Shown: positions 19,253 to 23,556 of the stretch, in pieces
How positions within the stretch are numbered: position 1 is the first letter of the stretch
Layout of the letters: every line of letters starts with the position of its first letter
Source: Escherichia phage UAE_MI-01
Sequence record: MW862804
Strand: one strand, 5' to 3'
Length of the DNA: 44,281 nucleotides
Translations under genes and position numbers: made by a program
The notes under the pieces: model-generated
The model's database searches: none
What the model saw: the letters and a program-made list of their open reading frames with translations, nothing else
Told to the model about the DNA's origin: nothing

Positions 19253-19582
19253 TTACTTAGAAGTTTTATTATTGCGTACCCAGGAGCGCACTGTGCTCTG
19301 ATTAATCCCAGTCAACTCGGCAATCATCGCCCATGATTTGCCCTCGGCGCGCAAACGGATAACCTGCTTTTTGTATTCTTCCATTTCTTCATTGTGCTTC
19401 TGCAGCTTGCTTGCTGCCGTGCCGTTGAGCAATTCCAGCCTGGCGCGTAATTCTTTTTCTACACTGCGCAGACGTTCAATCTCAAATAGCACCGCCCCCA
19501 CGGCATCGGTATACGCCCATGACCGGCTTGTCTCACTGCAAACAGTCTTCGTTAACATTTCGATTGCGTCGTTGATATTCAT
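19253..19582 (-). CDS. HTH DNA-binding regulator (putative)
   Basis: 109 aa; coiled-coil middle, C-terminal HTH-like segment (KSWAMIAELTGINQSTVRSWVRN); palindrome GTTGGT-taatga-ACCAAC 14 nt upstream of its start. Confidence 0.5.
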   Translation of the reverse strand: MNINDAIEMLTKTVCSETSRSWAYTDAVGAVLFEIERLRSVEKELRARLELLNGTAASKLQKHNEEMEEYKKQVIRLRAEGKSWAMIAELTGINQSTVRSWVRNNKTSK

Positions 19583-19759
19583 TGCTCTGCCCTCAGTTGG
19601 TTAATGACCAACGAAACTACACCTAAAACCGAAAGGTGTCAAATCCTTTGGATATTGAAACGGGCGCGCACGCGTGTAATAATAATTCCCGTCTCATTGT
19701 CTCTTATTGGTTAGCGCCGTCGCATTTTGCCTCGGCGCTTTTTTTTTTGAAATTAGTTG

Positions 19760-19788
19760 TTGACTCCCTTCTGCAACCAATCTAATAT
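19760..19788 (+). promoter_or_regulatory. Sigma70-like early promoter (TTGACT-17 bp-TAATAT) with CAACCAAT motif in the spacer and a T10 tract upstream
   Basis: Direct reading of the -35/-10 hexamers and spacing. Confidence 0.55.
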
Positions 19789-19984
19789 TCACTCCGTCGA
19801 CAGGATGCAGGACGCAAACTGGAGAGGGGCAACGCAGGGGCCGGATCGAAGTGTCAGGATTCCCAACCGTGATTATATAACCAGGTCCACTACCCGAAAG
19901 GGAGAACGCGTAACCTGGCAATATGTTAAGGCCACCGACGAAGTTTACTGCCGACACCTAAACTTAACCAATCGGAGATACACC

Positions 19985-20527
19985 ATGTTTGAACAAATCG
20001 TAAACCTGATCACTCGCGGCGTAGTAGCACTGGAAATCATCGCTAAACATTATGAAACCGTTGGCGCTGCCGTAGACCCAAAAGCAAACGGCACTGCTAA
20101 GAAAGGCAAGGCCAAGCCAGATACTGAAGTCGAAGACGACGACGATCAGGACGAAGTCGAAGATACGCCTAAAACGAAAAAAGGCGCGGCAAAAGAAACC
20201 AAGTCTAAAGGTAAGGCCAAAAAAGAAGTCGTAGAAGATGACGACGACGATGACGCCGATGACGTGAAGCCAGCGAAGGGTAAAAAAGCTCCGGCGAAAG
20301 GCAAAGGCAAGAAAGATGCCGATCCGCTGGCAGAGATGCGCGACGAGATCAAACAGTATGCCGCTATTATCGCTGGTGGTGACGACGACGATGCCAACGA
20401 CGAATTCGACGACCTGCTGGAAGCGTTCGAGATCAAATCAATCGCCAAGCTGGAAGATGACGACGTCGAAGACTTCCACAAAGACCTGAAAGAAATCGTC
20501 GAAACCTATTTCGAATTGGAAGATTAA
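19985..20527 (+). CDS. Highly charged early protein with alternating Lys-rich and Asp/Glu-rich blocks
   Basis: ATG 19985 with GGAGAT RBS; first gene of the plus-strand operon; followed by terminator. Confidence 0.55.
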   Translation: MFEQIVNLITRGVVALEIIAKHYETVGAAVDPKANGTAKKGKAKPDTEVEDDDDQDEVEDTPKTKKGAAKETKSKGKAKKEVVEDDDDDDADDVKPAKGKKAPAKGKGKKDADPLAEMRDEIKQYAAIIAGGDDDDANDEFDDLLEAFEIKSIAKLEDDDVEDFHKDLKEIVETYFELED

Positions 20528-20533
20528 TGTATT

Positions 20534-20561
20534 CCGGCCCGCTAATCTGCGGGCCTCTTTT
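20534..20561 (+). terminator. Rho-independent terminator
   Basis: CCGGCCCGC-taatct-GCGGGCC followed by TCTTTT. Confidence 0.6.
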
Positions 20562-20574
20562 AGAGGACGAGACA

Positions 20575-20826
20575 ATGGCACGATTCACGCTAATCGAGGC
20601 GGTGGATTCCCGCGACCAGCGCCCGTACTATTGGCTATTCGAACGCATCGGCAGCTTTCAGTCACGAGTTGCCGTAATAGATAAACGCCGTAACACCCCC
20701 GCGCAAATTAAGCGCACCACCTTTACTAACCCCGACTTTTATATTTGGGCAGACTCCAATCTGGAATATGTTCGCTTCGCGGTTGCATCCGAAGCAAGAA
20801 CGATTGACCGCTGGGAGACGAAATAA
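20575..20826 (+). CDS. Hypothetical protein
   Basis: ATG 20575 with GAGGA RBS. Confidence 0.45.
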   Translation: MARFTLIEAVDSRDQRPYYWLFERIGSFQSRVAVIDKRRNTPAQIKRTTFTNPDFYIWADSNLEYVRFAVASEARTIDRWETK

Positions 20827-21015
20827 ATGGCTATATTCTTTGTTTTATTTCGTTGCCGTATTACCGGCGATGAGCAACCGGAAATCGTTATGAATCAGAA
20901 CTGGAATTGCTGCTGGATGCAAGCCCGAGGACTGGCGGCTACCATGAACGAAGCCGCGAAGCGGGCTGGGGTTAAACATGAATATTACATTGCTCAGTTT
21001 TCAAGGGTGGAATAA
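20827..21015 (+). CDS. Small hypothetical protein
   Basis: ATG directly after upstream stop; 62 aa. Confidence 0.35.
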   Translation: MAIFFVLFRCRITGDEQPEIVMNQNWNCCWMQARGLAATMNEAAKRAGVKHEYYIAQFSRVE

Positions 21016-22445
21016 TGGCGATTAAACCAAAACGTAAAACGCAATCCGGTAGCAATACGGAACACTCATTACTTGGTCCATCCGGTGCTAAAAAATGGAT
21101 GGGTTGCCCTGCCGCCCTGGTGGTGGAAAAAGATATCCCGAACGAATCCGGGCAAGCCGCGATTAACGGTACGAGTATGCACACCGTATCGGAGGTGGTG
21201 CTAAACCGCATTATCGCCGGTGAGAAGCTGATAACCGCGAAGACGTATAAAGGGTGCTACGTCGAGAACGAAGGCAAGGGGCCAGTAAAGGCACACCCGA
21301 AAGCACCGAAAGGCGGCGTACTGGTCAATGACGACATGGTGAAACAGTGCGACGCGTACATCGACCACTGGCGACCGCTCCTCGAAGTGGCGGAGTTTGT
21401 CCAGCTTGAGATGCGCGCCGATCTGACCCGCGTCCTTCACTCAGGCTACGAGATCGACGGCAACCGGATTAAAACGTTCGGTACTGCCGATATGGTCATG
21501 GTCATGAAAAAGACCGACGGTACGTACATGCTGATTGTTGGCGACCTGAAGACCGGGCGGCATAAGGTCGAGGCAAAAGAAAACAAACAGCTTATGTTGT
21601 ACGCGCTCGGCCTGCTGCGCAAGCTGCAAACCATGTACGACATTACGACCGTTCGCCTGGTTATCTTCCAGCCGTATTGCGGCGGGGCGTCGGAGTGGGA
21701 TATTTCGGTAGAAGCGCTGGAGATATTCGCGAAGTTTGCATCCAAGCGCGCTATTGCCGCACTGGAGGCGTATTCCCGAGGCAAGAAGGGGCTTACACGT
21801 GCCGACTTCCGTCCCAGCGTTGATGCGTGCCAGTGGTGCAGATTTGCGGATCAGTGTAGCGCCAGGGCGAAGGCCGCAATCGATACGATGACACCCCCAA
21901 CGGCAACCGACGAAGACCTGGGCGACGACGTGAGTATTGCGACTGCGGAAGAATGCGCCAACCATGACCGCAATATGACCCGCGAAGCCCGGAAGGCGGC
22001 ACGACGTGCGAAGCGTGGTAAGAAAGAAGCGGCCCCCGGGGCTATGAGCGCGGAGGAACTGCGCAAGGCTTATGAAGGCCTGGACGCAATGCGCCAGCAC
22101 ATCAAAGCTATCGAGTCCGCGGTATTCAAAGCGGTAATGGCGGGTGATGGCGAATCGCTGGGCCTCAAGATGGTCGCCGGTAAGGAAGGGATCCGTAAGT
22201 GGGCGGACGAGAGCGAAGTGATTGAAATCTTCACGAAGGCCCGGATCAAGCGCGATGTGATGTACAAAGAAACATTGCTCAGCCCTACGGATGCCGAGAA
22301 GGTACTGAAGGACGAAAAACCGAAAGTGTGGGCTAAGCTGTGTGATAAAATCACACGCGCGCCAGCTAAACCGGTGTTAGCACCGATCGACGACCCGCGC
22401 CCTGCGTGGTCGGAAGCTACTGACGAGGACTTAAGCAATGAATAA
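21015..22445 (+). CDS. PD-(D/E)xK exonuclease (Cas4/RecB-like, DUF2800-type)
   Basis: D...VGDLKTG motif, C-terminal Cys cluster CQWCRFADQC; position in PolA replication module. Confidence 0.55.
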   Translation: MAIKPKRKTQSGSNTEHSLLGPSGAKKWMGCPAALVVEKDIPNESGQAAINGTSMHTVSEVVLNRIIAGEKLITAKTYKGCYVENEGKGPVKAHPKAPKGGVLVNDDMVKQCDAYIDHWRPLLEVAEFVQLEMRADLTRVLHSGYEIDGNRIKTFGTADMVMVMKKTDGTYMLIVGDLKTGRHKVEAKENKQLMLYALGLLRKLQTMYDITTVRLVIFQPYCGGASEWDISVEALEIFAKFASKRAIAALEAYSRGKKGLTRADFRPSVDACQWCRFADQCSARAKAAIDTMTPPTATDEDLGDDVSIATAEECANHDRNMTREARKAARRAKRGKKEAAPGAMSAEELRKAYEGLDAMRQHIKAIESAVFKAVMAGDGESLGLKMVAGKEGIRKWADESEVIEIFTKARIKRDVMYKETLLSPTDAEKVLKDEKPKVWAKLCDKITRAPAKPVLAPIDDPRPAWSEATDEDLSNE

Positions 22446-22680: not shown

Positions 22681-22770
22681 CCGCTTAGGCGCAACCAAGT
22701 AGATTAGCAACCAAGCCGAACGGGGTGGCTTCCAATAACCCCGATACATGTGAAAATGAGGAATTGGAAA

Positions 22771-23556
22771 ATGGCTAAAGTCAACCTGAAAAATGTGCGC
22801 GTATGTTTCCTGAAAATTTGGGAACGTGATACCCCTAAACAGGACGGACAAAAACCGGCATACCGCGCCGTGATTCTTCTTGATAAAGAAGATCCGCAGG
22901 TGGACAAAGTGGAAGCGGCAGCGCGCGCAGTGCTCACCGACAAGCTGAAATCCGAGAAGAATGCCGATAAGTGGATGGACCGCCACTACGCCCAGGATTC
23001 TAAGGAATGTGCAGTTCGCGACGGCGACGAGCGCGATGAAGTAACCGAAGAATTCGAAGGAATGTTGTACATCAACGCTAAATCGTTCAAACAGCCAAAC
23101 ATCCAAACGTCACTCGGCGAGAAGCAGACCGAACAGGGTCTGACCGTAGAAGGCGACGAAATCGAAGGCCAGGAGATCTACTCCGGTTGTTATTGCAATG
23201 TGTCACTGGATATTTGGGCGTGGAACAACACCAACGGCAAGGGACTCGGTGCTGGACTGCTGGGTTTACGCTTCCGTGATGACGGTGAAGCCTTCGGCGG
23301 TGGCGGATCTTCGTGCTCCGATGAAGACCTGGACAACGACGACGAAGATGAAAGCCCGCGCAAGTCCAAAAAGTCAAAACGTCGTGATGACGATGACGAA
23401 GACGACAAGCCGCGCAAGTCCAAAAAGTCCAAGCGCCGCGATGACGACGATGATGACGAAGACGAGAAACCTCGTAAACGTCGTAAGCCACGCGATGACG
23501 AAGATGATGAGGACGACGACGAAGACGAAGCACCACGCAAACGTCGCCGCCGTTAA
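22771..23556 (+). CDS. ssDNA-binding protein-like (DUF2815-type, putative) with C-terminal basic/acidic repeats
   Basis: ATG 22771 with GAGGAA RBS; synteny between DUF2800-like nuclease and PolA; C-terminus built from 54-63-nt tandem DNA repeats. Confidence 0.4.
   Translation: MAKVNLKNVRVCFLKIWERDTPKQDGQKPAYRAVILLDKEDPQVDKVEAAARAVLTDKLKSEKNADKWMDRHYAQDSKECAVRDGDERDEVTEEFEGMLYINAKSFKQPNIQTSLGEKQTEQGLTVEGDEIEGQEIYSGCYCNVSLDIWAWNNTNGKGLGAGLLGLRFRDDGEAFGGGGSSCSDEDLDNDDEDESPRKSKKSKRRDDDDEDDKPRKSKKSKRRDDDDDDEDEKPRKRRKPRDDEDDEDDDEDEAPRKRRRR
23356..23556 (+). repeat. Imperfect tandem coding repeats (54, 60 and 63 nt) encoding PRKSKKSKRRDDDD(E/D)n units
   Basis: Direct reading. Confidence 0.8.

Follow-up and report, generated by a model that had tools for sequence, protein, structure and literature searches.

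The DNA analysed here (hereafter the window) is the 44,281-nucleotide sequence record MW862804 of Escherichia phage UAE_MI-01. Our subject is one of its genes, at positions 19985 to 20527 on the plus strand, which encodes a 180-residue protein of alternating lysine-rich and aspartate/glutamate-rich segments that we call the charge-block protein. The 1.3 kb around the gene is 91–97% identical to about 170 phage records, nearly all of them Escherichia or Shigella siphoviruses of the genus Dhillonvirus, including HK578, JL1, SSL-2009a, SO-1 and the BASEL isolates Bas14-18 (93% DNA identity between the window and the Bas18 locus). Judged by sequence, the 44.3-kb window is essentially a Dhillonvirus (HK578/JL1-like) genome. 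The charge-block protein is real and widely conserved, and it combines an unusual architecture with a fixed genomic context; from these we infer a mechanism, that of an electrostatic adaptor in phage replication and recombination, which we put forward tentatively. The gene and its immediate surroundings comprise the following features.

19760–19788, plus strand: sigma70-type promoter found by consensus scan (TTGACT at 19760–19765, 17 nt, TAATAT at 19783–19788).
19794–19960, plus strand: 5' leader RNA, structured and about 165 nt long, whose seven helices come from comparative alignment and covariation.
19974–19978, plus strand: Shine-Dalgarno sequence GGAGA, 6 nt before the ATG, read from the sequence.
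19985–20527, plus strand: coding sequence of the charge-block protein, 180 aa, ATG at 19985 and stop codon TAA at 20525–20527 (open reading frame (ORF); PHROG 3127; homologue of HK578 gp44, Bas18_0048 and EE09_56).
19985–20065, plus strand: module 1, N-terminal amphipathic helix, residues 1–27 (alignment of relatives, AlphaFold2 (AF2) model).
20066–20314, plus strand: module 2, disordered net-neutral spacer, residues 28–110 (low model confidence, copy-number variation, charge statistics).
20315–20524, plus strand: module 3, hyper-acidic three-helix C-terminal domain, residues 111–180 (AF2 model, substitution rates, profile search).
20536–20561, plus strand: intrinsic-terminator-like hairpin GGCCCGC-TAATCT-GCGGGCC followed by TCTTTT, with a 7-bp all-GC stem, 9 nt after the stop codon (scan).

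A first-pass annotation of this locus, made from the letters alone, had reported alternating poly-Lys and poly-Asp/Glu blocks, quoting as examples what are residues 39–60 (KKGKAKPDTEVEDDDDQDEVED) and 75–93 (KGKAKKEVVEDDDDDDADD). This pattern was borne out by comparison with shuffled sequences. Within residues 28–110, which hold 22 K/R and 23 D/E, the sign of the charge switches only 7 times, as against 22.5 ± 3.3 times after shuffling; none of 5000 shuffles was as low, and none of 5000 exceeded a kappa-like measure of charge segregation over the same residues. The protein as a whole has an isoelectric point of 4.4 and a net charge of −23, with 53 acidic residues (32 D and 21 E) against 30 basic ones (28 K and 2 R). 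The alternating region itself is net neutral, and nearly all of the net negative charge comes from the last 70 residues, at the C-terminus (net about −20).

The alternating blocks serve as a spacer of variable length. In each of their tandem units a basic KPAKxKKAPAKGKxKK block precedes an acidic EVVEDDDDxDAEDE block, and the number of units differs among otherwise near-identical Dhillonvirus alleles, whose products are 115, 122, 143, about 170 and 180 aa long. The shortest of these natural alleles (P0092, 115 aa) retains both end modules, joined by some 15 linker residues in which about four lysines are left of the basic blocks. AF2 gives residues 19–106 a predicted local distance difference test score (pLDDT) below 50. 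In most of the divergent members of the family the character of the spacer recurs (highly charged, near-neutral and blocky) while its sequence does not. The suggestion that the basic blocks could bind nucleic acid is weakened as an account of the protein's key function, since the blocks form a spacer of variable copy number and are nearly lost in P0092.

The two ends of the protein behave differently. The ‘short hydrophobic N-terminus’ of the first-pass annotation turned out to be a conserved N-terminal helix with a broad hydrophobic face; however, it is amphipathic, about 26 residues long, and not a membrane span. Its mean Eisenberg hydrophobicity is 0.29 and its hydrophobic moment 0.46 in the window protein, and the mean ranges from 0.03 to 0.45 across the family, under the range of membrane spans. 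AF2 predicts a helix at residues 2–26 with low confidence. In an alignment of close and distant relatives L8, R11, A15, E17, I19 and A20 are invariant, and the helix is about 92% identical over 25 residues to records from Kagunavirus and other Salmonella and E. coli siphophages. The C-terminal domain is modelled with a pLDDT of about 90 as three helices (residues 114–131, 135–147 and 158–176) and carries the motif GDxDxxxDEFDDLLE...KLxDxDVxxFH. Over 15 pooled Dhillonvirus alleles, the acidic domain has a ratio of nonsynonymous to synonymous substitution rates (dN/dS) of 0.039, at a dS of 0.52, and the N-terminal helix one of 0.14; selection thus acts on the two ends of the protein. Three relatives (P0123, P0124 and P0133) show two stretches that match the acidic-domain profile, after the same N-terminal helix and spacer, and thus appear to carry two tandem copies of the domain. 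This argues for the acidic head as an independent binding module with changeable valency.

By profile comparison the protein is a member of a catalogued family that is itself uncharacterised, PHROG 3127, whose hidden Markov model it matches over its full length (E 1.3e-49, residues 1–180 on profile positions 1–178 of 178). Alignments, profile searches and AF2 models all return the same family architecture of N-terminal helix, charged spacer and acidic three-helix C-terminal domain. Named homologues are HK578 gp44, SO-1 gp46, Bas14 gp48, EE09 CDS56 and the ‘13.88 kDa late protein’ of Salmonella phage MB78, after which some other homologues are labelled. The family comprises 179 database clusters at E≤0.001, with members of 115–180 aa, and a tblastn search with a distant member as query returned 384 phage records that span Dhillonvirus, Kagunavirus, other Salmonella and E. 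coli siphophages, Edwardsiella phage eiAU, and phages of Serratia and Klebsiella. Searching with a profile of the acidic domain gave 40 clusters only among 1.84 billion representatives; these are short proteins (31–212 aa) with the domain nearly always at the C-terminus.

The first-pass annotation had left the function unassigned by eye, and database searches leave it so. At E≤0.1 Pfam returned only sub-threshold hits to BUD22 (E 0.051, compositional) and DUF6669, and NCBIfam returned no match. A PDB sequence search at E≤10 gave three unrelated chains only, and when the confidently modelled C-terminal domain was compared with the PDB by Foldseek, the best E was 0.76, so that no relative of solved structure was found. 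A fold search of BFVD returned family members only, including the MB78, eiAU gp46 and St162 proteins. Our literature search found no experimental paper on the PHROG 3127 family. Blocky polyampholytes of comparable composition are known (nucleolin, nucleophosmin, BUD22-like nucleolar proteins, the HMGB1 tail, and the pair prothymosin-alpha and histone H1), a likeness of composition and not homology. To our knowledge, no phage charge-block protein of this kind has a demonstrated function. The product of Enc34 ORF3, which sits at the same position in that phage, was tried as a homologue and set aside (no detectable homology; hhalign probability 0.6%).

The start codon needed attention, as public records disagree on it. 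GenBank entries MZ501095 (bas18_0048) and OR756193 (EE09_56) place the start 50–60 codons upstream, adding an extension that begins MQDANWRG and corresponds to positions 19805–19984 of the window; database entries P0001, P0006 and P0024 are also extended, and the extended entries are 207–239 aa long. The HK578 depositors annotated the short form. We rejected the upstream start because its frame crosses a conserved non-coding leader RNA. In allele L049 the open frame reaches only one codon 5' of Met1, which excludes the longer form, and conservation of the protein sets in at the same methionine in distant relatives whose upstream DNA is unrelated. On these three grounds the methionine at 19985 is the correct start, and the extension of about 55–60 residues is an artefact of a frame that happens to be open through the leader RNA. 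The supplementary file of the EE09 study contains no peptide-level data able to fix the N-terminus of the charge-block protein.

The gene occupies a constant place in a replication module. In all lineages examined, down to about 30–38% identity and as far as the contigs extend, we read the same order: a helix-turn-helix (HTH) regulator, the charge-block gene, one or two small ORFs, a DUF2800 PD-(D/E)XK nuclease, an Enc34-type SSB (a protein that binds single-stranded DNA), PolA and an SNF2 helicase. The charge-block gene is in each case the first downstream of the divergent control region that carries the HTH regulator. Among 57 IMG/VR loci with this clade of SSB, 51 carry the charge-block gene upstream on the same strand, and at least five of the other six start less than 2.3 kb upstream of the SSB gene and are uninformative either way. 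Fixed synteny together with strong purifying selection suggests a core gene of the replication module, not an accessory gene of an arms race.

The position of the gene, first behind a sigma70-like promoter, had been claimed in the first-pass annotation as well, and the consensus scan agreed with it. A T10/A-T-rich stretch precedes the promoter, the HK578 depositors annotated a promoter at the equivalent site, and a leader of about 190 nt separates promoter and gene. Of 9 other lineages, 8 have a GC-rich hairpin of differing sequence, mostly with a T-rich run, at this position behind the gene. The coordinates at six loci, from lineages whose hairpin sequences differ completely, are as follows on their own contigs.

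L002 8471–8520, L003 3538–3598 and L042 4501–4545: post-stop hairpins, GC-rich, mostly with a T-rich run.
L102 6943–6991, L103 704–756 and L105 3729–3787: post-stop hairpins, GC-rich, mostly with a T-rich run.

The usual layout, found in most lineages, therefore has the gene between the promoter and its own terminator-like hairpin, and what appears to be conserved is the succession of gene and terminator as such. Where promoter, gene and terminator form a cassette at the start of an operon, more product would be expected than is made of the downstream enzymes. Consistent with this, a proteomic study of Dhillonvirus EE09 saw only four phage proteins in infected cells at 25 min, CDS29, CDS40, CDS56 and CDS61 (PMC10673088); by its locus tag (EE09_56) CDS56 is the homologue of the charge-block protein, and CDS61 is the SSB. 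We take this published evidence to indicate that the EE09 homologue is abundant. CDS56 is absent from the same study's table of proteins detected in cell-free lysates (PMC10673088), and for that reason it does not look like a virion component.

The leader between promoter and gene is a structured RNA in its own right. In blastn searches, 52–105 nt of it recur at 78–94% identity in unannotated intergenic DNA of unrelated phages, namely Drexlerviridae (slyngel, swan01, KMI8 and Motto), Murrayvirus Lumpael, Sortsnevirus IME279, Jilinvirus PT1 and Bas97. It begins 6–8 nt past the −10 box in the window and a few nucleotides past a promoter-like −10 in the unrelated phages, where it ends 20–45 nt upstream of a start codon and the downstream genes are unrelated to ours. 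The element is single-copy in the window, and its helices lie at the following positions, all on the plus strand.

19796–19803 with 19948–19955: helix P1.
19818–19 with 19943–44: helix P2.
19826–30 with 19931–36: helix P3.
19832–34 with 19868–70: helix P4.
19837–46 with 19853–64: helix P5.
19881–86 with 19913–18: helix P6.
19890–95 with 19900–04: helix P7, with a GAAA loop at 19896–99.

In a MAFFT alignment of 11 sequences, 92% of the cells in these helices can pair, compared with 29–50% when the 3' partners are slid, and 14 pairs are compensatory; none of 500 shuffles reached the score. Realignment with a covariance model gave 92% against 31–49%, with 18 compensatory pairs and with P3, P6 and P7 paired at 100%, in an alignment of 22 rows that includes two weak chance matches and is fitted to the structure, which favours it. 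Positions in P3, P6 and P7 show up to five pair types in the covariance-model alignment, and P7 is capped by ACCA in the slyngel group, where most members have GAAA, GCAA or GAAC. Comparative analysis was needed here because the folding energy of the single sequence is uninformative (z 0.82). No Rfam 15 family reached its gathering score anywhere in the window, none matched at E≤5 within 19796–19960, and the core sequence of the leader was not found in a relevant context in the papers searched. The leader is thus a covariation-supported structured RNA without an Rfam entry, and it stands as a module before unrelated genes. Some Dhillonviruses (rolling, LM40P1) lack it, as do the other lineages with the charge-block protein, and it is therefore an independent element that is not part of the protein's function. 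The leader may protect the 5' end of the mRNA or control translation. A put-like processive antiterminator was also considered and is weakened by the lack of a terminator-like site downstream in 4 of 8 other carriers (up to 2.5 kb scanned).

What might such a protein do? Our favoured explanation, possible and still well short of probable, is that it works as an electrostatic adaptor in the replication-recombination module, being abundant, modular and without enzymatic activity. The N-terminal helix would self-associate or dock the protein on a partner, and the acidic head would offer a polyanionic, DNA-like surface for a basic segment. The most likely target of the head would be the charge-blocked, mostly Arg-tipped tail of the Enc34-type SSB encoded by the same phage; alternatively, the head would bind some other basic surface with which the replication machinery contacts DNA. 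The repeat spacer could then be a tether that is flexible, attracts itself and can be tuned in length. Overall, SSB and replication proteins would be held, concentrated or kept off dsDNA, at stoichiometric levels, early in infection. The candidate partner is encoded in the same operon.

22750–23556, plus strand: Enc34-type SSB (Pfam PF10991, E 1.4e-31), with its tail at about 23347–23553.

The tail of the window SSB reads ...DDDEDESPRKSKKSKRRDDDDEDDKPRKSKKSKRRDDDDDDEDEKPRKRRKPRDDEDDEDDDEDEAPRKRRRR, a repeat of acidic and basic blocks (DDDDEDDKPRKSKKSKRR repeated) that ends PRKRRRR. Blocky SSB tails are present in all the family-bearing lineages examined, mostly with Arg-rich tips (APRKRRRR, ERPRRRSR, APRRERRRR, EQPRRRRR); the lineages with Arg-rich tips are Dhillonvirus, the L002 group, L003, Kagunavirus and L101. 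By contrast, the tail of Enc34 ORF6, the SSB of this type whose structure has been characterised, is acidic only (PMC5686142), which we confirmed by translation. The SSB is also co-detected with the charge-block protein in the EE09 infected-cell proteome. The proposal recalls the acidic tails of E. coli SSB, T7 gp2.5, T4 gp32 and Enc34 ORF6, in which a polyanion binds basic surfaces of the replication machinery and competes with DNA (PMC5686142). Here, however, the polyanion would be a folded domain on a separate, abundant protein, and the cognate SSB tails alternate acidic and basic blocks and are often Arg-tipped.

Several observations count against this proposal. In L102 and L104 the SSB tails end in acidic residues after an Arg/Lys block, and the link between the charge-block protein and the SSB tail is correlative, drawn from a single clade, with Enc34 as the only out-group. 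Three-helix bundles are generic folds. The proteome detection comes from one low-depth study, and Lys-rich charged proteins may be over- or under-detected. Finally, high expression and the position as first early gene fit a host-directed inhibitor equally.

Such an inhibitor is the main rival explanation. Here the protein would be a DNA mimic directed at the host and not at restriction, its acidic head blocking the DNA site of a conserved host protein (RecBCD, HU, H-NS and RNA polymerase are candidates) and being displayed multivalently through oligomerisation of the N-terminal helix; we regard this as rather unlikely. The head is small, compact and strongly acidic on its surface, as expected of a DNA mimic (net about −20 in some 70 residues); the gene comes first among the early genes, and there is evidence that its product is abundant. 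It also shares an operon with a phage exonuclease and an SSB. In phage lambda, gam adjoins exo and bet, and in T7, gene 5.9 adjoins gene 6; Gam and gp5.9 are DNA mimics that inhibit RecBCD. Like them, the charge-block protein is acidic, helical and encoded with phage exonuclease and annealing or SSB functions, but it has a different architecture and shares neither homology nor a fold with them, nor does it resemble Ocr, ArdA or other proteins of solved structure in sequence or fold. A conserved host target would fit the conservation of the protein across phages of E. coli, Salmonella, Edwardsiella, Serratia and Klebsiella, and HK578 is restricted by the RecBCD-linked OLD protein of P2, with escapers in the neighbouring gp43, gp46 and the gp45-46 promoter. 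Yet none of the Dhillonvirus escaper or trigger studies that we found maps to the charge-block gene, and in the loci examined the gene is never apart from this replication module.

An extension of the adaptor proposal, which we consider unlikely, makes the protein the scaffold of a charge-driven replication compartment and, separately, the leader a new class of phage cis-acting RNA. The spacer and head, made multivalent through the N-terminal helix, would co-condense with the SSB tail and ssDNA into a membrane-less hub for replication and recombination, and the repeat copy number would tune its material properties.

The protein could instead be a nucleoid-like DNA binder, with its Lys-rich PAKK/AKGK blocks bound to phage or host DNA and its acidic parts auto-inhibiting or tuning this binding, as the acidic tail of HMGB1 does. 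The blocks are rich in Lys, Pro and Ala like those of histone H1, Hc1 and the HupB tail, some relatives carry AT-hook-like KRGRKP/KPRGR sequences, the product seems abundant, and the gene adjoins the divergent control region, which may hold an origin. Against this, the basic blocks are matched one-for-one by acidic blocks so that the spacer is net neutral, their number varies down to the four or so lysines of P0092, and the constrained parts of the protein are the helix and the acidic head. Pfam and NCBIfam searches gave no match to nucleoid-protein families (HU, H-NS, H1/Hc1-like), and the protein does not have the net-basic Lys-rich tail of such proteins. We think this explanation improbable.

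A host RNA polymerase factor for the early-to-middle switch (an anti-sigma factor, a sigma region 1.1-like protein or an acidic activator) is less probable again. We noticed no phage RNA polymerase, the charge-block gene is expressed first, its product has an acidic helical domain with a DEFDDLLE motif, and the name ‘13.88 kDa late protein’ hints at regulated expression. However, the protein resembles none of the phage proteins known to bind RNA polymerase; the sole PDB match related to RNA polymerase, the T4 gp33 complex, had an E of 2.2 and a TM-score of 0.37, and the gene is tightly linked with replication genes, not with late-gene regions.

The idea of the first-pass annotation, an acidic DNA mimic that counters restriction, survives only in part: the protein is very acidic overall, but restriction as its target, by an Ocr/ArdA-type block of type I or other restriction-modification enzymes, is now highly improbable. 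As with T7 Ocr (gp0.3) and ArdA, we are dealing with a small, very acidic protein encoded by the first early gene behind a strong host-type promoter, just as in the case of T7 gene 0.3. Here, however, the acidity is confined to a 70-residue three-helix bundle, which a neutral repeat spacer tethers to a conserved helix. Ocr (PF08684) gave no Pfam match at E≤0.1 and ArdA (PF07275) none in Pfam or NCBIfam. Structure prediction, one of the checks suggested in that annotation, yielded the acidic three-helix head with no match to the ArdA fold or to that of Ocr, an elongated helical dimer that imitates bent B-DNA. The available parts of the BASEL study, whose Dhillonvirus isolates include Bas18, set the Queuovirinae, which resist restriction by type I and II systems, against Dhillonvirus and Drexlerviridae. 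They describe Dhillonviruses as more sensitive to such restriction than siphoviruses with 7-deazaguanine modification, and credit the type I resistance of T7-like phages to Ocr or a SAM hydrolase. A restriction-sensitive genus, in the terms of those parts of the study, and a gene under purifying selection that behaves as a core gene make an Ocr-like role unlikely.

As improbable is a membrane-anchored organiser of replication, with the N-terminal helix in the inner membrane and the head recruiting proteins or DNA. The model for this would be phi29 p16.7, an early membrane protein with an N-terminal hydrophobic helix, a linker and a small helical C-terminal domain. The order of modules and the early position in a replication module are shared with p16.7, but the helix of the charge-block protein is amphipathic, with invariant R11 and E17, mostly also D/E10 and H16, a clear polar face and a mean hydrophobicity (0.03–0.45) unlike that of a transmembrane segment; moreover, the head is acidic rather than DNA-binding, and the proteins are not homologous.

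Few coliphages and Salmonella phages are isolated as often as Dhillonviruses, Guernseyvirinae and their relatives, which serve in therapy cocktails and in research on defence systems (the BASEL and SECphi collections). The nuclease, SSB and polymerase of the replication module are already known as triggers of retrons, Hachiman and Borvo, and to learn what its first gene does would close a gap in this picture. Should the protein indeed be an electrostatic adaptor or scaffold, it would offer a simple bacterial-virus model of how charge patterning organises DNA transactions; as a condensate scaffold, it would be one common to several hundred enterobacterial siphophage genomes, and as a host-directed mimic, a new class of inhibitor. 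The leader is a candidate for a new family of phage regulatory RNAs.

None of the defence triggers and escapers that we checked corresponds to the charge-block gene. The Dhillonvirus anti-Tmn corresponds to ORF35, Ksap1 (74 aa) is encoded elsewhere in the genome, the trigger of RAZR and Swarozyc is the portal protein, that of retron IX is the DUF2800 nuclease, Retron-Eco8 and Borvo sense the SSB and the polymerase, respectively, and the OLD escapers map to gp43, gp46 and a promoter.

Neighbouring genes and sites gave some further observations. The gene after the terminator-like hairpin (20575–20826, plus strand) encodes 83 aa, belongs to the uncharacterised PHROG 4965 and corresponds by homology to HK578 gp43. 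HK578 with a frameshift in gp43 escapes the abortive-infection protein OLD of P2, so that gp43 is dispensable and tied to DNA processing. The DUF2800 PD-(D/E)XK nuclease (21015–22445, plus strand) sits at the position of Bas14_0045, the reported trigger of the type IX retron (Sen3) (2026 preprint). On the other side, the divergent 109-aa protein (19253–19582, minus strand) is annotated as ‘transposase’ (PHROG 9366, HK578, EE09) or as ‘Gam nuclease inhibitor’ (phage rolling). Its sole motif is a C-terminal one of HTH_23 / sigma70-r4-like type, and the protein is more likely the regulator of the divergent promoters. The promoter escaper of P2 OLD in HK578 has its deletion in the gp45-46 promoter region, within the same divergent intergenic region.

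A second promoter-like site lies in this region as well, TTGAAA-17-(TG)AATAAT at 19655–19683 on the plus strand, and about 30 nt past it a GCGCCG...CGGCGC hairpin (19714–19738) is followed by a T10 run (19739–19748). Initiation there would give a transcript of only about 55–60 nt; alternatively, the arrangement would work as an attenuator a short way upstream of the main promoter. A 36-aa ORF is annotated at 19604–19714 in some records. Lastly, a few records carry unexpected host labels. Campylobacter phage A144 (MG065648) is about 91% identical to the window over 1.3 kb despite its non-enterobacterial label, and the leader element is present in Acinetobacter phage NJ01 (OQ221563) and Pseudomonas phage Motto (ON843697), the latter classified in Drexlerviridae; the host labels of A144, NJ01 and Motto may be wrong, or the records may be contaminated.

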